A stretch of 64,000 nt of DNA from NCBI GenBank assembly GCA_051294375.1, contig CM119265.1, positions 902,089 through 966,088 on the forward strand, in the 5' to 3' direction. Within the stretch, counting starts at the first letter, position 1, and each line of letters begins with the position of its first letter. This DNA is from Paraspadella gotoi (Eukaryota; Animalia; Chaetognatha). The notes beneath the pieces were generated by a model. The model was not told where the DNA came from. It saw only the letters and a list, made by a program, of their open reading frames with translations, and did not search any database. This document shows, one piece after another, positions 3,001 through 41,200 of the stretch. A program made the position numbers and the translations under genes.

Positions 3001-6000
3001 GTATTCGCCATCGACATCGAAATCCCGCGGGGAGGAAAGGCGTGTCCAATGGCGTTATTTTGTCCTTGTTCGGGTAAAACGCGTTAGGAAGTCGGCGGGG
3101 TTGTCTTCACTCATTTACTAAGATCACCGCTCGAACGGCGTGGCACTCCCTTGATCTTCGGTTATTCCACCTTAGCACATTCGTCGGTAAGAGTTGTTTG
3201 TTGTCGTGTTTTGCATTTCCATAGACTCTGTTTAAAGTATTGTGAGGGTCTGTTATTTAGCGGCACCCTTCGTCCGCAGATGTAGCCTTTGAATTTTCTT
3301 ACCCATCAATGTTAAATGCCAGGCGTTTCTAGGAGATTAATGTGTTTTTATTACTGTATTCCTCCCCGGGAATGACTTTGAGTTGAAAACACAGTGGGTA
3401 TTCTACCCCTTCTGCTGTGGCTAATGTGATTGAGCCACTCCCATTGCGCTCGTGCTGGCGTCGGCGTATATATCTTGTATTCGCCATTCTTTATTTTTGC
3501 CATCGTTTAGAAAATTTAACTCCTGGGGTTGATTTTATTCTCTTCTACAGCGTTCGAGCGCGGCCTTCTTGTGCGTTTCTCGTTCAAAACGGAAAGTTTG
3601 CCTTGTCGACCAGCGTCAAGGGCATGCAACGGCATGCCCCGCCAAGTAGAAGAAACCGGTGAGTTAAAGCAGCGGTTAGTAATTTAGAGAAGCAAAAGCA
3701 GGGCCTCTAAGCGTCCTTTTGCGTTTTCATTTTTCGCCGCAATTTCACTTCCACCTGTTCTAGTTTTTCGCGCTGTGGCCGCAGCTTGGTCTCTCGAAAT
3801 GCTGAATTCGAGTATTTTGAATGTCGTCCTTTCGGAGGAGGACACTTGCTTCGTCGCCACTTGAGGATCTACGTCTCTGCTCGTCTGCATATTTCGAGGG
3901 AATTCTCTGGCAGTCGGTTGTGGCGCACCCATCTTCGGGATTTGATGTCGACGCGTAACTAACACATATCCACAGACTGCCGGGTGAGGATATGAGGTCC
4001 GTCGACGTAGATGAGGGAAACTTTTTCACGCTCCTCTACCCAGGTCCGTCGAATATCTCGTCTAAGGCATGGCCTGGAGTAACATTTATTGCTGTTTACT
4101 CCCCCATTGAGCTAACATTCAAAATCTGCCAATTGTGGCCTAGCCCAGGCGAAGAAGCGGTGACTGGCTTGCCATTCTGTCTGCGTGTGTCGGTGAGATT
4201 AACTTGGTGGAAACATGCGAGGATGTCAACGGAGCATTGTAGCTCGTGAGGTTTATATTCTTCCAGTATCGACGCTATTGTCTGAGGTTCAGTAGCAAAA
4301 GTCGATATGTTATTGTTCACCGCTGATAAGTCACATATGAGGCGCCATTGTTTCGCGAATGTTTCGTCATCCATTTTCTCCTGATTTTCAGCTATGTGAT
4401 TTGGCTTCTTTATGAGGAACGCGTTTGAGTACGCTTCCCCTGAGGTCCTTGACACAACGCCGGCTTTCTCGTACACTTTGAGGTATTGTTTCAGTGCCGC
4501 CTTCTTTACTGGGCCTTGGTTTACGAATCTGGGCTTTGGTAAGTTTTCTCTTGTGAATCCTAGATCGACTTTATAATTTAGAAAGCCCTCCTTGCAGTCG
4601 TTTATAGTTTCGCCAAACACATCTCTGAATTCCCAGACGACGTCCCAGACGATTTTTGCCTTATCCACTAGGGATTTATCTACTTCCTTGAACGGGCGGA
4701 GGAATTCCTCTTTACCNNNNNNNNNNTGCTTGTTTCGGCGTCTTTCTCTGGCTTCGTGGGCGGCTTCGATCTCGGCTTCCGACGGTTTGTGATGAACGAT
4801 CGTTGTCGGTGGAATATTTTCTTTTCTGACCTTTCGTAGTCGCGGCGATTCGCCTGATAAATCAGCTTGTACTGGTCTGGCGGTGAGTCTCGTTTTGAGG
4901 CCAAGTTCGTCCTTCGCTTCCTCCGTGATGATCAGCCTTGCTTCCCCCCAGAAGCCCGGGGTGCCGGGCAATTTGACGCCATGGCGGAGCTCGTTTCCTG
5001 TTACTGAGCAGGTCGTTTTTTCATCGGCTGATTCGACGATCCATTTCGCCTCAGCAAGGGATTTCCAGTACGTCCTCGCCGCTCTTACCATCACGCGACC
5101 GTCCTCGTCTCTCTCGGCGTATAACGGGATTTGCGTCTCCTCGTCGATGCAGCGGTGGGCTAACCATCTCGCGGCCTTGAGCGCGTCCTGTTTGTTCTTG
5201 TACAGGTGTGTTATGGGTTTTTCTGCCATGTGAGCAACTTGCATACCTTTTGTTTGCGCTGGTGCCACTACCCACATCTCCGCCGCTGGGCCTGGATCCG
5301 TGGTGGCGGTGCCGATTATTATATCCTTGTCTTGTTCGTCTGGTGAGACGAAAAAAACTGTGTCCAGGACCCAGTTCTGGAACATTACTCTCAGATTTAG
5401 TCTGTCTTTTATGACCACGACGCCATTTCCGGTTGTGACTCGGACCGGTGTTCCTGCATAGATTTTTCTGTGTAGGGACCACTCGTCGACGAATCTTCTC
5501 GGGATCGTGATCGAGGCGCCGGTGTCGTAGAGGCAACTCGCAGGCGCGCCGCCCCGCCGAGCTCACTACGAGCTAGTATGTAACGTAGTTTCCCGAGCCG
5601 TGCACCGGCCTGCCCGTGTCCGTGCGGCCGGTTCGGGGCTGGGTTTTGTCCGCGGACTAGATCCACCCAAATCTGGTCGGTAGCGGCGGAGGCGCTTTCG
5701 CCTTTCTCGGTTTCGGCGGTCGGTGCGGCAGAATTCGAAAGTTTTCTGGCCGCGTGCATTCGACTGTCAACCCTTGCCTGATCGTTCGCCTGGTGCATTG
5801 ATTCGCCTTCGGGTTGCCGACAACGACAGCGTAAGTGGGTTATAGACAGCTTCTCCCCTTCGCATGTACTAGTCGTAGCCTGCTTCCACTTCTTCTTGTG
5901 TGCCCGTAGCCACTTACCTTCCTTTCCGTTCTTGTCTTCACCATGTTTGCCCAATGTTCTCCGTGCTCCTTCTCTGTCGGCTTCTTATTCGCTCTGCGGC

Positions 6001-7183: not shown

Positions 7184-9268
7184 NNNNNNNNNNNNNNNNN
7201 NNNNNNNNNNNNNNNNNNNNNNNNNNNNNNNNNNNNNNNNNNNNNNNNNNNNNNNNNNNNNNNNNNNNNNNNNNNNNNNNNNNAGATATTAACGTTAATA
7301 GCTTTAGATCGAGAATGAATTTACTCTCCAAAGAAACGGATAACAATAACAATAGAAATACTAAGTATAAGAGAGACAATGGAATAAACGACTGAGGGAC
7401 ATTTTATGGACAATTAAGAACATGATTACAAGGTCACACAAACGGTGAGAGAGAGAGAGNNNNNNNNNNNNNNNNNNNNNNNNNNNNNNNNNNNNNNNNN
7501 NNNNNNNNNNNNNNNNNNNNNNNNNNNNNNNNNNNNNNNNNNNNNNNNNNNNNNNNNNNNNNNNNNNNNNNNNNNNNNNNNNNNNNNNNNNNNNNNNNNN
7601 NNNNNNNNNNNNNNNNNNNNNNNNNNNNNNNNNNNNNNNNNNNNNNNNNNNNNNNNNNNNNNNNNNNNNNNNNNNNNNNNNNNNNNNNNNNNNNNNNNNN
7701 NNNNNNNNNNNNNNNNNNNNNNNNNNNNNNNNNNNNNNNNNNNNNNNNNNNNNNNNNNNNNNCTCTCTCTCTCTCTCTCCCCGCTTGGCATGCACCAGTT
7801 ACATAAAAGGTTCTCCAAAAAGGAAGATTTTTCAAATCATTGAAATAACTGGCGATTATAAATTATTATTTAAGACTCAGAGACATTGCGAGCGAGGGTC
7901 CAGTTGTAATCCGCAGATCTGATTATTGGTTTAAAAAGATATCAGTCGTATGACTCTTCCAGGTTATCGTTTAAATTCGAGCGGGCAGCTTTTTTACTTA
8001 TCTGTTAACTAACTGTGGGTGTGATTCTTTCGTTTCTAAGATATACATTACTCAGTTTTATTTTTTTGGTTCGGAAAAGAAAAAGGTACAGATAGTTATC
8101 TGCATACACTATTTTGACATGTAATTCGTTAACTCTTTGACTTGCTACCTTTAATGATTATTATTCCATTTTCATACCTATGCTGATCAAAAGAATAATA
8201 AAACCTTACTTAGTTTAATTGTAGTTTTTATATTTTAAGTTTCTCCTCTTAGAGAATTATCTTCACCCCATTGAACAGAACGACGATTTTATAAATGATT
8301 GATTAATTAATTGACTTTATTGATTGATTGATTGATTGATTGAATGTGTTGATTGATTTATATTGTTTGATATTGATTGGTATTGAAACTTAATAAATAT
8401 ATTATAATTGTATTATAAATTTAATGCTGAAATGTTAAGTTCATTAGGGTGTAAGTTTGCGTGTTTTGTATTGTATTTGTATTTTTTTTCTAAATAATAA
8501 TAATATAATAACAGAGAGGAGAGAGAGAGAAAAAGAGAAGAGAGAGGGTCGAAAGGCTATCAAACCGATTTTCTTTTAAGCAATTAAAAATGTCGTGTTG
8601 GAGCCAAATCGCATGACATCCGGATAACTCATGACTTTTACATATTATATCCCTAAAAGGTGACAATAGTTCCTATTAAAATATAAAATTCCCCGTCTTA
8701 AAAAAGCAAAAATTCTTTTTTTACGCTTTTAAAATGATTTACACTCGACTTTAAACATTATGGTAAGTAATAAGAGTATCTTTTTTGTATTTAATTTTGT
8801 CTTTAACTTTAACCAGAATAGTTTATATTATACTTTATAGATCAGATCTTTAATCAGTCAGAATTTCATGAGCTCTTCTTCGTATAATATTGTTTCTTGG
8901 TTCACTTTACTAAAAAATATAATTGAGACCTTTGCTGTAATCATTTTCATTATCTACGAAAACATAATAATTGATTGAGCATTCGATAGATCGTTCAAAA
9001 TAATAATATTGAGAATAAAGAATAAGTATAAAATGTATCGCTGCATAACTGATTTAACCCTTTTATTGAGTTTGGAGCCAAAACATTTTTTTTCATTTCC
9101 AACTCTCCAATATACATATCGCTCTATCTATCTATCTGTCTAGTCAATCTCTCTATCTATTTATCTTTCTATCTCTTCTCATCCTCCTCTTCCCATCCCT
9201 CTCCCGAGGAGCCTTCCCTTTTTTAGTTCAGTCTTCGTGAGTCTCGAGTTCACCCTTCCTCCGTCCCC

Positions 9269-9577: not shown

Positions 9578-9622
9578 TTATCTTTCCTTCAAACCGTAAT
9601 TTTTGTTCAAATTTTCTTCCAG

Positions 9623-11887
9623 ACAAAATTAAGCTTCATCGTCGTCGTCGTCGTCGTCGTCGTCGTTCTCGGTGTAAAGAAGGCAGAGGGAACAGACGTG
9701 ACTGCAACACCGGTGAGAAATAACAATAAATAATTAATTTATAATTATTTTTTAGGTAATTACGTAGTAATTTTGCTTAATATTATACTTATATATCTTA
9801 TTTAATATACTCTTGTTTGTTAAATGTTTAACAAAAACTTTTTGTACGTTTTTTAACTATTTAATGAGAGAGAGAAAGGAAGGAAGGAAGGAAGGAAGGA
9901 AGGAAGGAAGGAAGGAAGGAAGGAAGGAAGGAAGGAAGGAGGGAATAAAAGAAAAAAGGAAAAAAAGGAACAAAAAAGGAAGAAAGGAAAAGAACAATTT
10001 ATAGTCGAGAAACTAAAAAAAGAAGAGATTTCTAATCTTTTTTCGGTTAAGGAAAAAAATAAAGGTTGGTGATGAAATGGAATGAAGATTAAAATTAAAA
10101 TTGAATGAAGATTAAAATTAAAAATTGAATTAAGATTAAAATTAAAATTAAATTAAGATTAAAATTAAAAATTGAATTAAGANNNNNNNNNNTAAAAAAG
10201 ATTCTATTTAATTATTTTTAATTATATCAAAATATTGTACCTTTTTTTTCAGCCAAATACAACTGTTACAGCCTCAACTGTGAATCTTCAATCAAATGCA
10301 AATTGTTGATGAATTTCACAGACTGTTTCTGCATGTCAGGCTGGAGAGGATGGGCTTGTGACGATGGTATTATAATTTTAAATCTTTTTTAAATAACAAA
10401 TTTAAAAACAAAAGTTTTGAATCTTTTCAGCCAGTGACGATTGCCCTGAGTATCCCTGCCGAAATCAATGGAATTGCATCGATTTGTACCAAAAATATAA
10501 TTGCTCTTGTTTGCCGGCAATGAGCGATTTGATGTGTCCTGATGGTGAGAATATTTTTATTCAGCTAAAAAATATTTCAACCAATGTATCTATAAACAAA
10601 ATATATATTTAAACAAAGGTTACATGAACATTACTGATCTAAGTGATGAATTGGATTTTTCGTTGGCGATCTCATCCACAGAAACAACTCGGGTAATTGT
10701 GAAGTTATCTTTTTATTCTGGTGTCTTGGACCCTTACCCTTGGACCCTTACCCTTACCCTTACCCTTACCCTTGGTCCCTTACCTTCTTAATTTAAGAAG
10801 TTTGTGTATTTTGGATTCTCTCTCTCTCTCCCATTCTTTTGCTCTTTCTTTTTCTTTTCGTGAGATTTTCATTTAAATTATTTTTGTGAATGTTAAATAT
10901 TGCCTTTTCAATCTGTAGTTTTTACAAAATAAAAAAAAAATTTAACAAATTATTTTTAAGAATACATTTTTTTAAAAAAAACAACTAAACATGATAACAT
11001 TATTTTTAAACTCAAGTCAACGAACATGCATTTTAATTAATAGCGCGAATGGACGTACGACTTGCAAAACAAACTTGCTACATTCTGCGACAAAGGAAAC
11101 ATTTCTGCCGTAAAAGACTTGATCCAAGAATTTGGTTTTCAAATCGTGATCGAGCCAAAACACTCAGCCTGGTCCGAATGTTCTTTCCGAGCGGCTTCCT
11201 CAGGGCAAATAGCTCTCTTGGAATATCTCTTTCAAAATGGGCTGGACGTCGATGAAGTTGATATTTATAACAGTTTCAATTTATTGAACCACGTTATTTA
11301 TGTGAGAGGAGACATCGAAGTAATTCGCTTTCTGCTTCGCAAAGGAGCAGATGTTTTCGCCACCTCTGATTACTATAGTCATTATTCTCCTTTGATGTAT
11401 GCGATTGATCTAAGATTAGGGCAAGTGGTGACAGAGTTAATCGCTTGGGGCGCCACTGTGGAATATTACGACAGTAGTTGGTTTCGAGCGTCATTAGCAG
11501 AAGAGAAAATCCAAAACGCAATTGAGGATGGAAAGAGAATACAAAGTTCTCTTATTGGTGAGAGAGGGAGAAAGAATTAAAATAGAGAGAGAGAGAGGAG
11601 AGAGACAAGAGAGAAGAGGATGGATGGAGAGAGAGCAGAGAGAGAGAAAAAAAAAAAATAAAATAGAGAGAATAGGAGAGAATATGGATGTATATAGAAG
11701 AAACAAAGAGAGAGAGAGCAGAGAGAGAGAGAGAGAAGAGAGAGAAGATAATAACGAAGAGGAGAGGAAAGATTAATTATAAAAGAAAAGTAGAGGACGG
11801 AGAGAGAGAGATAGAGATAGACGAGTAGGAGAGAGAAGAAGAGAGAGAGAAAGAGAGAGAAGAGAAGAGAAGAAAGAGAGAGATGAT

Positions 11888-11937
<50 letters not shown>

Positions 11938-14900
11938 AAATAGTAAGAATAGGAGAGAAAGATGTAATTCGAGAAGAAACAAGTTTGAGCAAACAATGTC
12001 GGATCTGCCTACGATAATTAAGCGGTAATCAGCTTATCAGATGATAAATCACAATATTTTTAAAAATTTTTTTAACTCGCATCATTTGTTTAACTCGCAT
12101 CATTTTTTCAACTCATATCATTTTTTTAATCCTAAATAATATAGATTCAAGTAATTGTGACTTATATTTTTTCCATTTCAACTCATTTCCACTGGCACAA
12201 TTCTGTCAAAACTTTATTATCAGTCTTTCTTCACACACTTTCCTACCCTCACACAAAATTTCATCTCAATCTATTATGGGTTTAAAATAAGTAAAAAGAT
12301 TCAAGTAAATGTGACTCATATTTTTTTCATTTAAACTCATTTCCACTCGTACATTTCCACCGAAAACTTTATATCAAGCTTCGTCACACACTTCCTACCA
12401 CACACAAAATTTCAACTCAATCTATCATTCCAATTATGATTAATTAGAGTATTTATTGGTTAAAATAAGTAAAAAGATTTTAGTAAATGAGACTTATGTT
12501 TTTTTCCATTTAAACTCATTTTCACTCACACGATTCCATCGAAACTTTATATCCAGCTTCATCACACACTTTCCAACCCACACACAAAATTCCATTCCAA
12601 TCCAACCAGCAATCACGAGTTATTGGAGCATTTGCTAAGGTGGGACGAATGGACGGATTGATTGGTGATTTAATTAATTATGATTAATTATTGACTAATT
12701 GATAAATTAACTGATTAAATATTTGATTTATTAATACATCCTGCATTTACATTTAATATAAAAAGAAAAAGAAGCATAATCAATTAGTGAAACAGGTTTT
12801 TTTTTTTTTATTTAAACTCATTTCCACTCAAACAATTCCATCGAAACTTGATTTCCTGTTCAATCACACACTTTCCTACCCAAATACAAAATTTCAAGTC
12901 AATCGCCCCATCCACTCATGAGCAATTGGTGTTCGAATAGTGAAATTTATTTTTTTTTTTGTTTTTTCCATTTAAACTCATCAGAAATCGAGGGCCGGTA
13001 GACGTCGCGGGTCTTCAACTCCTCTTCTCTCTCTTTTCCTCCTCCCTCCGTCAATTTCCCCCTCCTTTCCCACCGACGGGGATTCGGGGTCGCGTTCAGG
13101 TTTAGGTTCAGTCCATCTTCTCCGTCTCTCTCTCTCTCTTCAGCCCTCTCCCTAGTAGTTCTGTTACCTTTTTTTTTCACCAGACTTAGTCGCTTACAAT
13201 ACATTTTCCCTTTTTTACCACCCATTTACCTCGTCCTTACTCAACGTCAGTACGAGTCAGGCAGTACCCGGCCTTAGTTAGAGCTCATTTCCACTCTGTA
13301 GATTCCATCGAAACTTCATATCCAGGTCAATCACACACTTCCCTACCCACACACAAAATTTTATTCAAATCCATCCATTCAATCATGAGTAATTGGTGTT
13401 TTTTGCTAAGGTGGGACGAACGGACGGATGGATGGACGGACGGACGGATGGACGGACATCATTTTTTTTGCATAATTTATCATAATTCAATGTTTTGGCA
13501 TGATATATGTTAGTGCCCGACAATATTGCGGGGGCGGACCGACGGACCGACAAAGTGAATTATAGAGTTGGGATCTGCTGATAAGCAGATCCGACGAAAA
13601 AAGAGAGAGAGAGAGAGAGAGTTGATTAAGTGATTGTGGTGCATATATGGCTGTGTGATGAAAGATTAAAAAACATAAAATATTATTAACCTGTTATCAG
13701 TTGTTATGTACTTGGATTCTTTGTCTGGTACATAGGCACCTTTGTAGACCTAAGAATACAAATATAGATAAAAAGAATAATGCTCTAAATTTTGAAATCC
13801 ACGAATTTGCAGAACAATACAACTGCTACGAATCTAGCTGTGAGTCTGTCATCAAATGCAAACTCCTAATGCATTTCAATGGCTGCAATTGCATATCAGG
13901 CTGGCGAGGCTGGGCTTGCTATAATGGTATTAATTTATATTGTATGTATACTTTTCCTAATTGTAGTTTTTACAGTGGATTTTAAAATTTTCTATTCTAT
14001 TTTAGCTACTGATTGTCCCACATTTCCCTGCAAAGACATTTGGAACTGTAACGATCTATATATGAAATATAACTGCTCCTGTTTGCCTGCAATGAATAAT
14101 TTAACATGCTCTAATGGTAATATCATTATTTCACGAGTTAACAGGAATCTGAAAACATAATAAACAACTATTTATTTTTTTTTAAGATTCAATTTATGTA
14201 AATGAGTTGAACAATGAACTGGATACTTCATTTACATCAGTGAAAAATAGAAATACAGAAATACTGCTACCAAGCACAACTGGACCAAGTAGCCAATTAA
14301 TTATCTCAGATAAAACATCCGATTTTCCAAGCAGTTTGTTTTTATGTTGACTGGAGATTATTTTTCATCTCCTTCACCAACAATGATAAGTTTGATTCCA
14401 ACAACAAGTCTAGGAGGGTTATATTCTTCAAAAAGACTGCAACTCAGTCAACGACACAAATCTTGGACAGAACCCACTCGGGTAAATTTATATACTATGA
14501 ATTTTTTTTTTTTTATTATTTATGTTTAGGCTTATAATGAAAAAAAAATGAAGGCTAAAACCATAGTCGAAATATATTTCTAATAAAAGTTTACCGTGGT
14601 TAAACAACAAATTGTTTGTCCACATCTGTGACTCATGTGGAATTGCTGGCAACATTGCTATTTGAATGAACTACAACTTAGGATGTTAATAATCTAAAAC
14701 ATTTTAGTTTATTATAGTTTAAAGTTTATTCTTTTGTATTGTTGAAATATTCCATCAGAAAATTAAATTAACAAAATATTTTGTATACAAAGGATCCTAA
14801 TTCAACCATGTCCTATTGCAATTCTCTCTCAATACAGAAAATACAAGAATACAGAAATACTGCTACCAAGCACAACAGGCAAGTAGCCAATTATTTATCT

Positions 14901-17900
14901 CAGATAAAACATCCGATTTTCCAAGCAGTTTTGTTTTTTATGTTGACTGAAGATTATTTTTCATCTCCTTCACCAACAATGATAAGTTTGATTCCAACAA
15001 CAAGTCTAGGAGGGTTATATTCTTCAAAACAGACTGCAACTCAGTCAACGACACAATCTTGGACAGAACCCACTCGGGTAAATTTATATACTATGAATCT
15101 TTTTTTAATTTATTGTTTAGGCTTATATGAAAAAAAATAATGAAGGCTAAAACCATAGTCGAAATATATTAATAAAAGTTTACCGTGGTTAAAACAATTG
15201 TTTGTCCACATCTGTGACTCATGTGTGATTGCTGGCAACATTGCTATTTGAATGAACTACAACTTAGGATGTTAATAATCTTAAAACATTTTAGTTATTA
15301 TAGTTTAAAGTTTATTCTTTTGTATTGTTGAAATTATTCCATCAGAAAATTAAATTAACAAATATTTTGTAAACAAAGGATCCTAATTCAACCATGTCCT
15401 ATTGCAATTCTTCTCTCAATACAGAAAATACAAAATACAGAAATACTGCTACCAAGCACAACTGGAGCAAGTAGCCAATTATTATCTCAGATAAAACATC
15501 CGATTTTCCAAGCAGTTTGTTTTTTATGTTGACTGAAGATTATTTTTCATCTCCTTCACCAACAATGATAAGTTTGATTCCAACAACAAGTCTGGAGGTT
15601 ATATTCTTCAAAACAGACTGCAACTCAGTCAACGACACAATCTTGGACAGAACCCACTCGGGTAAATTTATATACTATGAATCGTTTTTTTATTTATTGT
15701 TTAGGCTTATAATGAAAAAAAAATAATGAAGGCTAAACAATAGTCGAAATATATTTCTAATAAAAGTTTACGTGGTTAAACAAAATTGTTTGTCCACATC
15801 TGTGACTCATGTGTGAATTGCTGGCACATTGCTATTTGAATGAACTACAACTTAGGATGTTAATAATCTTAAAACATTTTAGTTTATTATAGTTTAAAGT
15901 TTATTCTTTTGTATTGTTGAAATTATTCCATCAGAAAATTAAATAACAAAATATTTGTATACAAAGGATCCTAATTCAACCATGTCCTATTGCAATTCTC
16001 TCTCAATACAGAAAATACAAAAATACAGAAATACTGCTACCCAGCACAACTGGAGCAAGTAGCCTATTTATCTCAGATAAACATCCCGATTTTCCAAGCA
16101 GTTTGTTTTTTATGTTGACTGAAGATTATTTTTCATCTCCTTCACCAACATGATAAGTTTGATTCCAACAACAAGTCTAGGAGGGTTATATTCTTCAAAA
16201 CAGACTGCAACTCAGTCAACGACACGATCTTGGACAGAACCCACTCGGGTAAATTTATATACTATGAATCGTTTTTTTTTAAATTATTGTTTAGGCTTAT
16301 AATGAAAAAAAAATAATGAAGGCTAAAACCATAGTCGAAATATATTTCTAAAGTTTACCGTGGTTAAAACAAAATTTTTGTCCACACCTGCGACTCATGC
16401 GTGAATCGCCGTCATCATCGCTATTTGAATGAACTCCAACTTAAGATGTTAATAATCTTAAAACATTTTAGTTTATTAAAGTTTATACTTAATCTTTCTA
16501 TTCTTTTGTAATTAAAATTAAAATATTTTGTATACAAAGGATCCTAATTCAACCATGTCCCATTGCAATTCTTTCTCAATACAAATGGACGCCATCTTTC
16601 TTGTCGACGAAAGTGGAAGCGTGAACCGTAATTCTTATCAAGAAGCCTTAGAATTTGTGGCCAGCGTCGTTGATGCTTTCAAAATTGGCAAGAATGAGGC
16701 CAGGGTCGCCCTGATCACCTTTGATCATAACCCCCTAACGGTTTTATCTTTGGTTAATTCAACACGAAAAGGAAAACAAGAGTCTATGAATGTTATTAAA
16801 GGAGCAAAGTATAATGGGGGTGGCACTTCTACAGGAAAAGCCATCACTGAAGCTGTAAAGCATTTTGAGGCACATCCTCGTGAATCAATTGCTCTCACAA
16901 AGATTATCATTGTCTTGACTGATGGAAGGAGTGGCGACAATGTCGCCATTCCAGCTGCTATAGCTAATGATAAAGGAATAAAGGTATACGCGATAGGCAT
17001 TGGCACCAACATTAATACTAAACAGTTGGAAGAAATAGCCATGGATTTATCAAGAGTCTATCATGTCTTAAGCACTGGTTTGCTCACTACGATCAAGAGT
17101 GATTTGGAAGAAAGAGTTTGTGAAGATGTGATGGGGATTCGCATAAATTGCACAACTGACTCTCACGGTTTTCCTTTGATGCACGTGCTTGTTCCTAGAT
17201 CTTTGAACTTTCAGTCATTTCTTACAATCGGAACTTGTTTAAACAAGAAATTGGAGAACTTCAATGAAGAATACTGGTTTTTTTCAATAATGTACAATGA
17301 ATGCGAAACGAAACTGAATTCAAGCGATTTGCACATCATTTATCACAACGTGATGTATCTTTCTGGAGAATCTGGATCTAATACAGACTCTGTTATTATA
17401 AGATCCGACAATCAAGCTTGGGGACTAAGATGTCTTTACGATAAAGTTATGATGAAAACCATATCAGGTGGAAGTTTTGAAACACAACCTAAAACCATTG
17501 AGAACAAGGGTAGTCTATTATTGTACATGGCTTTATACCGAACGTCTGCTTATTCAGAAGCATTAACATTTCCAGCCGAATTTTACTCTGATGAGTTGGT
17601 GTATATTCTCATACAACTGAGCAGCATTGAAAATCTGCAAATCTTTATTTTGGATTGCTGGGCCACGCCATCTGCGGATCCCAATCATGTTATTCAATAC
17701 ATGATGATTAAAGATGGTTGTATTTTGGACAAAACATTGTATTTTGACTCAAGATCTTCTTTTCTCAAAATATTGTTCTCATATGAGGCATTTAGATTTC
17801 GAGATGAGTCTACAAAAGAGGTATATATTCATGCAAAAGTTGTTATCTGTTTGAAAAATTCCGATTCCAGATGCAATCAAGGATGTATCGAAAATAAAAG

Positions 17901-19119
17901 GAAAAGAAGGGCAATTAATAACAACATTGAAGCTCTTAAAGAAGTTTCTGCAGGTCCATTGACTCTTGCAGAAGGATCAAGAACTAAATGCAAAGACATG
18001 GAACCCATTCAAAATGGCCACCTGGAATGTACCAAAGGCCTTGAATTGACATCATCCTGCCAACTTCACTGCTTACATGGGTTTTATCTATCAAGTTCTA
18101 ACCCAAGCAACGACTCAATTATTTGCTCTGCAAACTCAGACGAACCAGAATGGGAAGGTCCAACTTTAAATTGTATTGACATCAACGAATGTGCAGTTCC
18201 AAACAATCCATGCAATCAAGTACAGAATTCTGAAATGACTGAATGCGTTAATACTCTTGGATCTTACAAATGCCAATGTCTCAAGGGTTATAGATCACTT
18301 CAAGGTCCAAAGGTGTGCAAAAAAGCTTACTATTTTCAAGGTTCAATAAAATCATTAGAAACGTTTTTTGAAGAACTAAGGATTCCTAATTCAAAATTGT
18401 TTCAGCAAACAAAAAACGAATACGAATCTTTATTACGCAATTCTTTTCTACTAGAAATACAGCAAGATGCAGTTGATATTGAAATTTTTTTATTTACACC
18501 TGGAAGTATCATTATTCACTTCAATGTGTTTTATTTTAAAGAAGAATCCCTAATTTATCAAGACTTTTTAGAACTAAGATCCAAATTGAAGAAAGGATTG
18601 ACGAGTCGGAACTCGACTGACATTGTGATTTCATCCTTTAATCTTGATGATAAAAATGAGTGCAATGATGAAAGAGATAATGATTGCTCTGTCAATGCCA
18701 AATGCATCAACATCATTGGTTCCTTTTCTTGTGAATGCAAAATGGGCTACAAAGACTTTGGCATGAAAGAATTTCCTGGCAGAGAATGTGAAAAGGATTC
18801 GAGTGAAAATAGTGAAGAAAAAGACGTGACTCAGTGGGTGATATTCGGATTGGGCATTGCGGGGCTTTTGGTGGCACTCGTCATTATTCTCGGCTGCGTG
18901 ATCAACAAAAAATGTAAGGGATCAAAGGTTGTTCCTGAAATGTTTTACAACGATGAGTTTCAAAAAAGTGTGAGCAAATCTGAAGAAAAGGAAGATCAAG
19001 ATAAAGAATTTGATCAAAAGGAAAATGAAGATCAACAGGAAGAATTTGAACAAAAGGAATGTCTTGAATTTCGTGATCAACATTGGAACATGAGGGGGCC
19101 TGCACGAAAATATGTCTAA
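9623..19119 (+). CDS. Multi-exon type I membrane protein: (signal peptide)-EGF-EGF-linker-ANK-EGF-EGF-Ser/Thr-vWA-ZP-CCP-EGF_Ca-SEA-EGF_Ca-TM
   Basis: AG/GT-bounded exons: 10253-10366 and 10431-10544 (EGF-like, phase 1-1), 10619-10692, 11044-11557 (ankyrin), 13813-13926 and 14006-14116 (EGF-like), 14187-14481 (S/T-rich, small indels), terminal exon 16540-19119. A tentative poly-Val signal-peptide exon lies at 9623-9712 (phase off by 1 nt), with a possible ATG|GTAAGT at 8760-8762. Confidence 0.65.
10730..10786. repeat. (TTACCC)n telomere-like microsatellite in an intron
   Basis: cccttaccct tandem units interrupted by tggac/tggtc. Confidence 0.7.
11044..11557 (+). CDS. Ankyrin-repeat exon (about 3-4 repeats)
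   Basis: AASSGQIALLEYLFQNGLDVD, GDIEVIRFLLRKGADVF and SPLMYAIDLRLGQVVTELIAWGATV. An AG at 11042-11043 opens in phase 0 in frame with the ORF; the G|GTGAGA donor at 11557 is phase 1. Confidence 0.85.
11974..13602 (+). mobile_element. Non-autonomous Helentron-associated (HINE/DINE-1/Pearl-like) element, copy 1
   Basis: Starts AAGAAACAAGTTTGAGCAAACAAT. 5' subTIR GTCGGATCTGC at 11998-12008. 3' hairpin GGATCTGC-TGATAA-GCAGATCCGAC at ~13570-13595. (GGAC/GGAT)n microsatellite ~13414-13457. Tandem cores catttaaactcatttccact...acacactttcctaccc. Colinear with 54721-57417. Confidence 0.8.
12981..13283. mobile_element. ~300 bp insertion inside a HINE core repeat
   Basis: Interrupts catttaaactca|tttccact, which is intact in the sister copy (~57087-57107). 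CTCA occurs at both 12977-12980 and 13284-13287. Confidence 0.6.
14247..16583 (+). repeat. Tandem array of ~4 units of ~590 bp, each carrying a hybrid exon plus intron
   Basis: tacagaaatactgctacc recurs at ~14254, 14851, 15437 and 16024. acccactcgg|gtaaat donors at ~14481, 15077, 15661 and 16248. The acceptor aaag|gatcctaattcaacc occurs at ~14792, 15379, 15967 and 16540. Confidence 0.92.
16540..19119 (+). CDS. Single 2.6 kb terminal exon encoding vWA, ZP module, sushi/CCP, EGF_Ca, SEA, EGF_Ca, TM and acidic tail
   Basis: ORF 16528-19119. vWA MIDAS DAIFLVDESGSV, GGGTSTG and IVLTDGRS. ZP motifs YNECET, LDCWATPS, IKDGC, FSYEAFRF, VYIHAKVVIC. RKRR at 17899-17910. CCP CxxxxPIQNGHLEC...W.GP..C. 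DINEC...CVNTLGSYKC. SEA motif FTPGSIIIHF. DKNEC...CINIIGSFSC. TM WVIFGLGIAGLLVALVIILGCVI. Confidence 0.92.
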   Translation, partial: DPNSTMSHCNSFSIQMDAIFLVDESGSVNRNSYQEALEFVASVVDAFKIGKNEARVALITFDHNPLTVLSLVNSTRKGKQESMNVIKGAKYNGGGTSTGKAITEAVKHFEAHPRESIALTKIIIVLTDGRSGDNVAIPAAIANDKGIKVYAIGIGTNINTKQLEEIAMDLSRVYHVLSTGLLTTIKSDLEERVCEDVMGIRINCTTDSHGFPLMHVLVPRSLNFQSFLTIGTCLNKKLENFNEEYWFFSIMYNECETKLNSSDLHIIYHNVMYLSGESGSNTDSVIIRSDNQAWGLRCLYDKVMMKTISGGSFETQPKTIENKGSLLLYMALYRTSAYSEALTFPAEFYSDELVYILIQLSSIENLQIFILDCWATPSADPNHVIQYMMIKDGCILDKTLYFDSRSSFLKILFSYEAFRFRDESTKEVYIHAKVVICLKNSDSRCNQGCIENKRKRRAINNNIEALKEVSAGPLTLAEGSRTKCKDMEPIQNGHLECTKGLELTSSCQLHCLHGFYLSSSNPSNDSIICSANSDEPEWEGPTLNCIDINECAVPNNPCNQVQNSEMTECVNTLGSYKCQCLKGYRSLQGPKVCKKAYYFQGSIKSLETFFEELRIPNSKLFQQTKNEYESLLRNSFLLEIQQDAVDIEIFLFTPGSIIIHFNVFYFKEESLIYQDFLELRSKLKKGLTSRNSTDIVISSFNLDDKNECNDERDNDCSVNAKCINIIGSFSCECKMGYKDFGMKEFPGRECEKDSSENSEEKDVTQWVIFGLGIAGLLVALVIILGCVINKKCKGSKVVPEMFYNDEFQKSVSKSEEKEDQDKEFDQKENEDQQEEFEQKECLEFRDQHWNMRGPARKYV

Positions 19120-19417
19120 GAAAAAATGGGTTCAAAAACATATTAGTTCAACCCACTTTGTAATTTTTGCATGTAAACAAAACTAAAAAGATATCAATTA
19201 TTTAAAATGGAAATATCTTTTTTGGAAAAAAATAGTTTTTGTAACTTTGTCTATTTTCTAGTTTATTTACCGTCACTTTTATGTCATTTCCGGGATGCTT
19301 TCGAGTATTTATTTATCAAATATGAAACAAATTAACATTTAAAGAGTTTACAAGGTAGTGAATCGCAGTGAATTCAGATTTTAAAGAACATTCATACAAT
19401 GGATCACATTTATGTAT

Positions 19418-38212: not shown

Positions 38213-41200
38213 ATGATTATGAAACAAACTAACACGGAATCAAGAGAGAAGAATGAGTCAACAGGTAACAATCAACTTAGGGAAAAAATATTACTAAGAA
38301 TAAAACACTGGCTAATAATGACAATGAAAGAGTATTATAATATTTAACATATAATTTTAAATTGTTTAAATTCTTATATAGACTCCAAAGACGGGCCTCG
38401 CGCGTGGATCATTTGTTTTGCTTTTTTCATCACTGCGATGCTTAACTACGGAACCGCCAGAGTTTTAGGAATTTTCTTGGACGAATGGGAAAAGGAGTTT
38501 AAAGTGCCTAAGGTAGATTATGATTTGTTTACAACTTTAGGGTTTTAAATATTATTTTTATTTTTAATACCAAAAACAGTATTAACATAATCATAAACAG
38601 TAACAGTATAAAAGACTGGAAAACAGTAAGCAAGAAAAAACTAAACTATTAAACTAAACTATTAATGTTACTATAATTTTTTTTATTTCAAAAATAATAA
38701 AAACAGAAGTTACATAATGACATAAAGTGACGTAAAAGACAATAACCTTATGACTAAAATGTTACTATAAAAAAATATAAAAAATAAAGTTTAAGAACAT
38801 TCAAGGATCAAATGTCAAAATCTACAACGTCAGTTTTTTATTCAAACAGACAAACATAGTCTAAACATGTATGTTTAAATAAAAAACTGCCGTTGTTGAC
38901 ACCATTTTTTTCCCTTGTTTATAACCTCAAACACAAAGAATCGAAAGAAAAACAATTCATATTTGTATATTTGATTCTTTAAAAAGTTGATATTTGTCTT
39001 ATGATTATTTTGATTTTCTTTATTTTTTTAAAATAAAGTATAAAATGTAAATGAGTCTTTGAGACCGAGGCTTATTAACAAACATTTGATGTTCTTTTGT
39101 TTTTCAGTCGATCGCTTCATTCATACCCTCCGCCGCCTTCTTAGCGATGGGTCTGGGTTTTCTCGCGATGGCGCTTTTCCACGGGAGTCACTCGCCACGT
39201 GGCGTCAGCATCGTCAGCGGCGTCGTCGCCAGCGGCGCTTTTGTGGGCGTGGCATTCGCCGACTCGTTCGCCCTCCTCCTCATTTGCGTAGGGTTAATTT
39301 ATTATTTAGAATTAATATGACATTAAGAATATTTTAAGATAAAACAACTAAACGAACAAATCTAAATATGATTAGAAAAATAATATAAAAACAACAGGTA
39401 AAGCGAAACCAAGCCAAAACAAAGTAATAAAAGACTAAATAAAATGAAACACTAAACCAAACAATAAACCAAACGACTAAAGAAAACCCAAATAAAAACA
39501 AACAAAATAAATAAAAATCAAATAAACAAACAAACACTAACAATTGAACAATTGAAACATTCTTTGAAATATTATACCACTTTATTGATAGGGAAGCCAA
39601 GTACTCTGGGAGTAAATAAACGAGACAGTGAGAGAATCTTGATTGAAAGCTTGCAGAGACCTGCTATGTTATTATCTTGTAAGAGTGATGGAGGCCTTAA
39701 ACCACCAAAGCCTGTCAAAAGTCAGGGACAAGATAGTTTATTTATTAAATGAATGGATGAGTTTAATATTGGTTGTACAAATTTTAAGAATTATAATCGA
39801 AACAAATCTTTCTTTCCTTTTTAAGACGATCGTAGGTTTCGTAGCCTCAACAACCTCATACACTTCGGCCATAGCGACTCTTGGCTCTTGGACTGATCGT
39901 TGCCGCCCTTTGGCCTTTGGCCTTTCAAACGCGGGGTCGCCCATAGCCGGGATGGCCTTTCCGCCGATCCTCGCAGCCCTGACGGCCGAGTTGGGCTGGA
40001 GGGGCTGTTTTCTCATCGTGGCGGGATTGACGATGCATCACTGTCTCTGCGGGATGATGATCAAGGTTTAATACCATAAATTGTAAATAAATCTAAGAAT
40101 AAATTTATGAATGAATAAATCTGTAAATAAATCTACAATAATTGTATTTTAAACACGTTAAGCCCCAACTTTAATACTATTAGTAAGAGAGTAAAAATGT
40201 TTCCATATGAGGGGTTCTAACCTAATAAATAAGTTTTAGCAAACAATGCCCATCTGCCCACGATCATTAGCGGTAAGCAGCTGATAAGATAAGTAATTAA
40301 TTAATTTTTTGCTATTCGTTGTGGCGAACAGTCACTTAAACGATATTGACTCCAAAGTTCGTGTGAATAATAAAATGTCTCCGGAACAAAATTTTTATTT
40401 GTTCATAATAGTAATAACAGAGCTTAATAAAATAATCAAAGCATATAGATATTCTGTCTGCTTTATTTGACAAGCAATCAAAATATCTATATCACACAAT
40501 AATATAAACAGTAACATTAATATAAATCAACATGAATAAAAACATGAACAAAATTCTGAATTAAAAAAACATTTTTTTCATAATTTATAGTAATACGATA
40601 AACTATAAACTATACTATTAACTATACATATAATCTTAATTTTTTTTTAATTTCGTTATCACACAGGGATGCTCTAACCTTACCATCTTGGAAAATGAAT
40701 AAGTCGCCAAATTTTAAAGTTAGTTAATTGTATATTAAAATTTAAATATAACAGAAAAAATGGGTATCAATATGTAGTGTGAACTCCCTTGCTCTTCACA
40801 ACTTTATTTATTCTGTTCAGCATTGACTCATAGAGCGACTGCAGGTATTCCAAGGAGAGGTTATCCCAAACTTTTTTGATAAGTCGTTTCATGGCTTGCA
40901 GAGATGTTGGACGTTCGTTTCTCAGTCGATTTTTCATCTCTGACCACACATTTTCGATCGGATTGAGATCCGGAGAGTTCCCAGGCCAGTCAGGTAGAAG
41001 TTTAACCCCATTTTGGTGATGCCACTTTTTTGTCTCCTTGGCTCGATGCGGAGGGGCGTTGTCTTCCATAAAAACTCAACATCGGACAAATTCTTTTATC
41101 TTCGCTTCCTCCAGAATTTCTCTATATTTGGCGCCATCAACGCATCCCGAAATGAAGATTAACTTTGACTTGGCACGGGTAGAGATTGCACCGAACACTA

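Follow-up and report, generated by a model that had tools for sequence, protein, structure and literature searches.

We analysed a 64,000-nt window of the Paraspadella gotoi genome (assembly GCA_051294375.1, contig CM119265.1), in which an exon encoding ankyrin repeats lies among exons for EGF-like, vWA and ZP domains; all coordinates are positions in this window. It is highly probable that the ankyrin exon is a genuine spliced part of the gene for an EGF-vWA-ZP protein with a transmembrane (TM) segment, in which it would most likely form the extracellular N-terminal head. In RNA, ordinary splice sites connect the ankyrin exon to a signal-type exon on its 5' side and to the EGF-vWA-ZP exons on its 3' side (Table 1).

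RNA evidence for the ankyrin exon

The RNA evidence consisted of the contigs of one run (X1) of one study. When three runs were compared, X1 contained 0.42 of the words sampled from 9600-19200 (~0.38 is expected for spliced mRNA), and X2 and X3 matched low-complexity intron pieces only. X1 was aligned over 10200-11570 and 13700-14880. An 804-nt X1 contig aligned to 11073-11557 (record positions 1-485) and then to 13812-13925, 14005-14115 and 14186-14280. Because the GT..AG introns are absent from this contig, we regard X1 as spliced RNA. The junction 11557>13813 falls inside this one contig, flanked by 485 letters on one side and 319 on the other (our minimum for a joint was 31 letters on each side), and the sequence beyond 11557 in X1 began with the 30 letters that open exon 13813. 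This observed junction bears out the proposal of the initial annotation that the transcript of an EGF-vWA-ZP-TM gene takes in the ankyrin exon by splicing.

In X1 RNA the ankyrin exon was joined at its acceptor (11043) as well as at its donor (11557), and the X1 contigs over 11043-11557 showed 0 and 1 differing letters and no gaps. On the 5' side, X1 record 7 joined 9685-9712 (27 nt plus a shared G) in frame to 11044, from a GT donor to an AG acceptor. On the 3' side, a 232-nt X1 contig overlapped the 804-nt contig by 30 nt and carried one base more than the assembly, which restored the frame of the linker exon. A 2927-nt X1 contig led from the end of the linker to the 5' end of the vWA exon, which was recognised by its 2 diagnostic letters; the length of this contig would suffice to reach ~19436.

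Domains were called with Pfam, using the curated cut-offs plus a listing at E<=0.1. On the ankyrin exon, Ank_4 scored 40.1 bits (cut-off 22.7, E 4e-10), Ank_2 38.7 bits (cut-off 27.3, E 1.5e-9), Ank_3 36.3 (cut-off 22.3) and Ank 34.5 (cut-off 21.1); Ank_5, at 19.2, was under its cut-off of 27. All top matches of an Atlas search with this exon were ankyrin (score 0.98). A single-sequence AlphaFold model of the exon had a mean pLDDT of 48.

The AG at 11042-11043 starts an open frame of 178 codons (11044-11580), within which the phase-1 donor G/GTGAGA occurs at 11557. It had been argued from the sequence that this frame bridges exactly a mismatch in phase between the exon ending at 10692 and the EGF exon at 13813. 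The sites named in that argument were all correct (a phase-0 GT donor at 10692, the AG at 11043, the phase-1 donor at 11557 and phase 1 at 13813), and the phases of the ankyrin exon do fit. However, 10692 is also compatible with the phase-0 acceptors at 14838, 15425, 16012 and 16540, and because of these four further downstream acceptors the phase argument alone is inconclusive.

Both introns flanking the ankyrin exon contain repeats. A degenerate short CCCTTA array occupies 10730-10785 on the 5' side, and a 150-300 bp repeat, preceded by a 400-bp GA-rich tract, is present in roughly five diverged copies at 12143-13400 on the 3' side.

Domain order and topology of the predicted protein

Joining the exons, with the linker frame taken from RNA, gave a model of 1235 open codons, which would reach up to 1475 aa with three extra linkers. 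We infer its start codon, the ATG at 8760, from the sequence: the 9-mer formed by this ATG and the GTAAGT donor occurs nowhere else on either strand of the window, and it yields an open model. The exon that follows encodes one Lys, a hydrophobic run derived from a GTC repeat and then an A-E-G cleavage-type motif, with a hydropathy peak of 2.79 (Kyte-Doolittle, 19 residues). The core of this exon (9639-9665) is a GTC microsatellite that is translated as poly-Val, and as poly-Arg in a second open frame. We rejected the Arg-rich phase-1 frame of 9623-9712, which would suit the upstream cassette (see below), as the RNA junction fixes the other frame.

Neither of the two EGF-like exons after the ankyrin exon (0/2) had a Pfam match at E<=0.1; both have the spacing C-x4-C-x5-C-x8-C-x-C-x8-C. 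The linker exon that follows (41% Ser, Thr and Pro) has further copies in a 588-bp tandem repeat (14793-16583). A fourth X1 contig looped from the end of the linker to 14251 via 8 letters that follow an internal AG of the repeat units. The looped linker unit is 240 nt (80 aa) long and open. Each 588-bp unit repeats the initial 45 nt of the vWA exon and continues with G instead of A, which creates the AG acceptor that the RNA uses. The in-frame 240-nt stalk exon arose by a tandem duplication that took in the 5' end of the vWA exon, together with a single-base substitution that made the new acceptor. Repeat exons starting at the copied vWA acceptors themselves (14793, 15379 and 15967) were considered and rejected, since the RNA goes to the internal AG ~45 nt further on. 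The depth ratio of loop to pass, 0.78, is compatible with three extra linker copies, contig depth being a weak measure, and a transcript may carry one to four linkers.

On the terminal exon, Pfam detected VWA (113.7 bits, E 1.5e-32), ZP-C (83.3 bits, cut-off 24.6, E 2.1e-23) and EGF_CA (E 1.6e-17); SEA (6.9e-5) and sushi (0.0028) were both under the curated cut-off. The ZP-N region was without a Pfam match of its own, and its four cysteines were in register in the alignment to P0003, a plain vWA-ZP protein. The metal site of the vWA domain is intact (MIDAS DESGS), with Thr and Asp motifs that align with those of P0003. The RKRR at 17899-17910, after ZP-C, is the only R-x-[KR]-R of the model, and a hydrophobic patch after ZP-C is also alignable to P0003; the basic cleavage site and the hydrophobic patch are both judged by the motif definitions for ZP proteins. 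The sushi-EGF-SEA-EGF series falls after the ZP cleavage site, on the N-terminal side of the TM segment. In the layout of the gene, six extracellular domains, the TM segment and the tail share a single intronless 2.6-kb exon, and the 5' modules lie on small exons.

Only two segments of the model are strongly hydrophobic, residues 1-27 and 1138-1170 (TM peak 2.86, with the TM segment near 1140-1165). A marginal peak of 1.66 lies inside the ZP domain. The ankyrins occupy residues 32-202, and the model contains 11 N-glycosylation sequons, one of them within the ankyrin part, at residue 50. Because the EGF, vWA and ZP domains have to lie in the lumen, and neither a TM segment nor another hydrophobic peak separates EGF from the ankyrins, the ankyrins are likely to be on the extracellular side. 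The extracellular location suggested by the initial annotation is thus also the one that we consider most likely.

From N- to C-terminus, the protein would comprise a signal peptide, three to four ankyrin repeats, two EGF-like domains, one to four Ser/Thr-rich linkers of 80 residues, vWA, ZP, RKRR, sushi, EGF, SEA, EGF, the TM segment and a short tail. We hypothesize that it enters the secretory pathway via the signal-type exon and is held by its single C-terminal anchor as a type I protein. The cleavage site and the hydrophobic patch are functional elements of ZP proteins. By analogy with such proteins, a furin-type cut at RKRR would presumably free the N-terminal part, and the ZP module might polymerise into an apical matrix or coat. 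Each subunit would then present its ankyrin head on a glycosylated Ser/Thr-rich stalk, as a protein-binding surface next to the metal-dependent adhesion site of the vWA domain. The head could be pictured as a natural DARPin-like binder on a mucin stalk, polymerised into a body or egg coat. Taken together, an extracellular ankyrin head in a ZP matrix protein is probable.

Table 1. Features of the predicted ankyrin-EGF-vWA-ZP gene, in window positions
Feature	Position	Strand	Description	Evidence
Candidate start codon	8760..8762	+	ATG at 3' end of first exon, followed by GTAAGT donor, phase 0	
Signal-peptide-like exon	9623..9712	+	90 nt, phase 0-0	Hydropathy and X1 record 7
Upstream cassette exons	10253-10366, 10431-10544 (EGF-like); 10619-10692 (short linker)	+	EGF-like, phase 1-1; short linker, phase 1-0	Open frame, GT-AG sites
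Ankyrin-repeat exon	11044..11557	+	514 nt, phase 0-1, 3-4 repeats	Pfam and X1 contigs
EGF-like exon	13813..13926	+	Six Cys, phase 1-1	Adjoins ankyrin exon on 804-nt contig; GT..AG intron after it removed
Second EGF-like exon	14006..14116	+	Six Cys, phase 1-1	804-nt contig, GT..AG joints on both sides
Ser/Thr/Pro-rich linker exon	14187..14481	+	Phase 1-0	Frameshifted in assembly, open in RNA
Linker copies	14838-15077, 15425-15661, 16012-16248	+	~240-nt exons, phase 0-0, in 588-bp tandem repeat	Indel-ridden in assembly
Terminal exon	16540..19119	+	vWA, ZP, RKRR, sushi, Ca-EGF, SEA, Ca-EGF, TM (~18830-18900), short tail; 3' untranslated region to ~19436	

Elsewhere in the window, a frame of retrotransposon type lies on the minus strand at 4096-5562; it encodes an aspartyl protease domain (Pfam E 2.4e-6) and, by eye, an apparent reverse transcriptase start. 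A transporter exon of the major facilitator superfamily (MFS_1, E 1.3e-8) lies on the plus strand at 39643-40071.

Possible alternative 5' ends, cassettes and reading frames

Several points weigh against the reading given above. The evidence is at the level of RNA contigs and sequence, not of protein, localisation or cleavage, and it comes from a single RNA run, in the form of contigs only, which may stem from the same project as the assembly. The ankyrin repeats are degenerate. No contig spans the distance from the ankyrin to the vWA exon and the path between them crosses a collapsed repeat, so that their link is a chain of overlapping contigs combined with gene order. Two joints are below the bar of 31 letters: the short side of the linker>vWA joint has 22-29, and the joint 9712>11044 has 28 upstream letters, which match the window exactly. 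On the 5' side, the RNA alignment covers the last 28 nt of the signal exon, and the 62 nt before them and the putative ATG exon are taken from the assembly. Moreover, a second X1 contig, which carries ~121 letters of other sequence at its 5' end, joins the ankyrin exon at 11073. Its recorded depth was ~13.9, compared with 5.9 for the contig of the signal exon, and this second sequence may be the commoner 5' end of ankyrin transcripts.

Allowing up to 6 errors, this second 5' sequence of ~121 letters matched neither strand of the window, which also lacks every 11-mer from the final 30 letters of the sequence. It joins 29 nt past the ankyrin acceptor, not at the AG, and may come from a different allele, from an exon that falls in a gap or from a chimeric joint. 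If most ankyrin transcripts started with it, a signal-less protein would be routed differently, or the N-terminus of the ankyrin part would vary by haplotype or paralogue. The absence of the sequence from the window and the contig depth speak for this explanation, which we nevertheless consider improbable. The depth of a contig says little about abundance, and as the joint is off the AG, a library chimera or another allele is equally likely. Over its final 30 letters the second sequence keeps the ankyrin frame open, and the downstream EGF, vWA and ZP domains, RKRR and one TM segment make up a secretory-pathway design. The gene might also end early: the model as assembled stops at codon 332, and if the frameshift in the linker were real, ANK-EGF-EGF would be a short secreted protein of 331 aa, separate from vWA-ZP. 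This is very unlikely in view of the contig that covers the linker exon, which has 296 nt where the assembly has 295. Its extra T has a depth of 24.9/24.9, although this contig collapses the linker copies. The three nearby repeat copies also show scattered indels, as an error-prone gap fill would produce. Least credible of all, and close to impossible in our estimation, is that the ankyrin frame forms a separate nested gene or a dead retrocopy within an intron. The single intronless exon with its own stop (11578-11580) and an ATG at 11049 would suit either, and the initial annotation had named a nested gene (ATG 11049 plus an indel, stop 11580) as its alternative. However, the ATG at 11049 is out of the ankyrin frame and opens 68 non-ankyrin codons, and the earliest ATG in the ankyrin frame is codon 118 of 178. 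The RNA contigs are free of indels and continue from 11557 into 13813, which excludes the nested gene for the transcripts observed.

The spliced ankyrin-EGF-vWA-ZP gene may also be expressed in a longer form. The initial annotation had placed two EGF-like domains before the ankyrins (EGF-EGF-ANK-EGF-EGF-vWA-ZP). The required junction 10692>11044 was not seen in X1, where the upstream exon observed ends at 9712, and the order that the RNA gives is signal peptide-ANK-EGF-EGF-linker-vWA-ZP; the longer order would have to belong to another isoform. The upstream cassette (10253-10692) is an old duplicate of 13813-14481. In comparison with the downstream EGF pair it gave pS 0.86 and pN 0.21 over 73 codon pairs (Fisher p 2.5e-14). 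The cassette is intact and under strong purifying selection. It lacks X1 cover, but such a hole counts neither way. We conclude that some transcript, perhaps the longer form, probably includes the cassette.

In such a form, the cassette would be spliced to 11044, or it would replace the ankyrin cassette by means of a downstream phase-0 acceptor. We give this possibility some weight, while considering it rather unlikely; it is compatible with the ankyrin exon being a spliced N-terminal part of the gene. In its favour are the selection on the cassette and the phases, which suit 10692>11044 as well as 10692>14838/15425/16012/16540 and are exactly those predicted by a tandem duplication of ANK-EGF-EGF-linker. 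Against it, the sole exon observed before 11044 ends at 9712, and the assembled sequence upstream of 10253 contains no phase-1 donor in the right frame. An upstream phase 0-to-1 exon would be required; it could be another ankyrin exon that falls in the 10-N assembly gap at 10183-10192, 60 nt 5' of the cassette. A tip-swapping locus, with two duplicated N-terminal cassettes, variable stalk exons and one constant vWA-ZP-TM exon, is a speculative extension of this idea that we hold to be doubtful.

Relatives and biological meaning

Among 7991 candidates, we found 11 relatives of the vWA-ZP exon, none of which (0/11) has an ankyrin family. The closest in architecture are P0003-P0005, plain vWA-ZP proteins of 564-586 aa with 29-30% identity. 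In these proteins, as in the one described here, vWA precedes ZP, and a basic RxRR site with the hydrophobic patch behind it is also shared; P0003 is 30% identical over 483 columns. Unlike our model, which has ANK-EGF-EGF-linkers before the vWA domain and sushi-EGF-SEA-EGF-TM after the cleavage site, they have Pfam lists without ankyrin, EGF or TM, and their vWA domain begins ~50 residues past the signal peptide. We assume a further likeness to uromodulin and uromodulin-like 1, in that these are type I membrane precursors with EGF modules, ZP and a basic cleavage site, and with SEA in uromodulin-like 1. They presumably differ in having neither ankyrin nor vWA, and in placing SEA and EGF before the ZP domain rather than between the cleavage site and the membrane. 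One paper describes ZP proteins as fibrillar parts of apical matrices, some with EGF, vWA or mucin domains; by this description, the C. elegans ZP proteins CUT-6, LET-653 and FBN-1, which have vWA, EGF or mucin domains, are comparable to ours (PMC11304992).

Searches with the ankyrin exon returned 1 of 39 candidates and 5 of 659 longer ones, generic ankyrin proteins only. The best 150 of 22082 candidates had a generic identity of 23-36% and included no closer relative. None of the 156 ankyrin matches shared EGF, vWA, ZP or sushi-SEA parts. By a crude filter, 32 of the 156 begin with a hydrophobic signal-like segment, and therefore secreted ankyrin proteins are not rare in the collections searched. 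The Atlas clusters that matched the ankyrin exon were bacterial, which is not indicative of transfer, and a foreign origin was not flagged by composition (GC3 0.41 for the ankyrin exon and 0.34 for the vWA exon, p 0.08). The capture of an intronless ankyrin gene, as suggested by the initial annotation, is a guess that our data neither support nor refute, because a donor was not found in the protein searches. The gain of a single exon by retroposition is rare in animals, according to a published study (PMC2926785).

Extracellular ankyrins have counterparts in other systems. The best PDB matches to the ankyrin exon were DARPins. Like these, alpha-latrotoxin, whose ankyrin repeats function outside cells as described in one paper (PMC13611351), and bacterial signal-peptide ankyrin proteins (P0001 and others) use ankyrins as an extracellular binding surface. 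These systems are soluble toxins, bacterial proteins and designs, however, and not animal membrane or matrix proteins with EGF, vWA or ZP. The papers listed on secreted ankyrin proteins concern bacteria, phage and oomycetes. We found no protein combining ankyrin with ZP or vWA in the full-text literature, mostly the main text of non-subscription papers, or in the protein collections searched, so that absence from print is unproven. The single paper that mentions ZP, vWA and ankyrin together has ankyrin in its references alone.

Notch contains EGF repeats, a TM segment and then cytosolic ankyrin repeats in one type I membrane protein. Although it shares the EGF-like and ankyrin modules, the ankyrins here precede the EGF domains with no TM segment between them, so the topology is not that of Notch. 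Animal domain shuffling mostly separates extracellular from intracellular modules, and ankyrin repeats of animals are, to our knowledge, generally confined to the cytosol or the nucleus. Matrix proteins with vWA and ZP domains were already known; what is new here is the predicted extracellular ankyrin head on one of them. If true, this gene would be a natural instance in which a binding scaffold from inside the cell has been recruited to the cell surface and to a ZP matrix, and it would allow a direct test of whether the ankyrin head folds in the endoplasmic reticulum, and of what ligand it binds.

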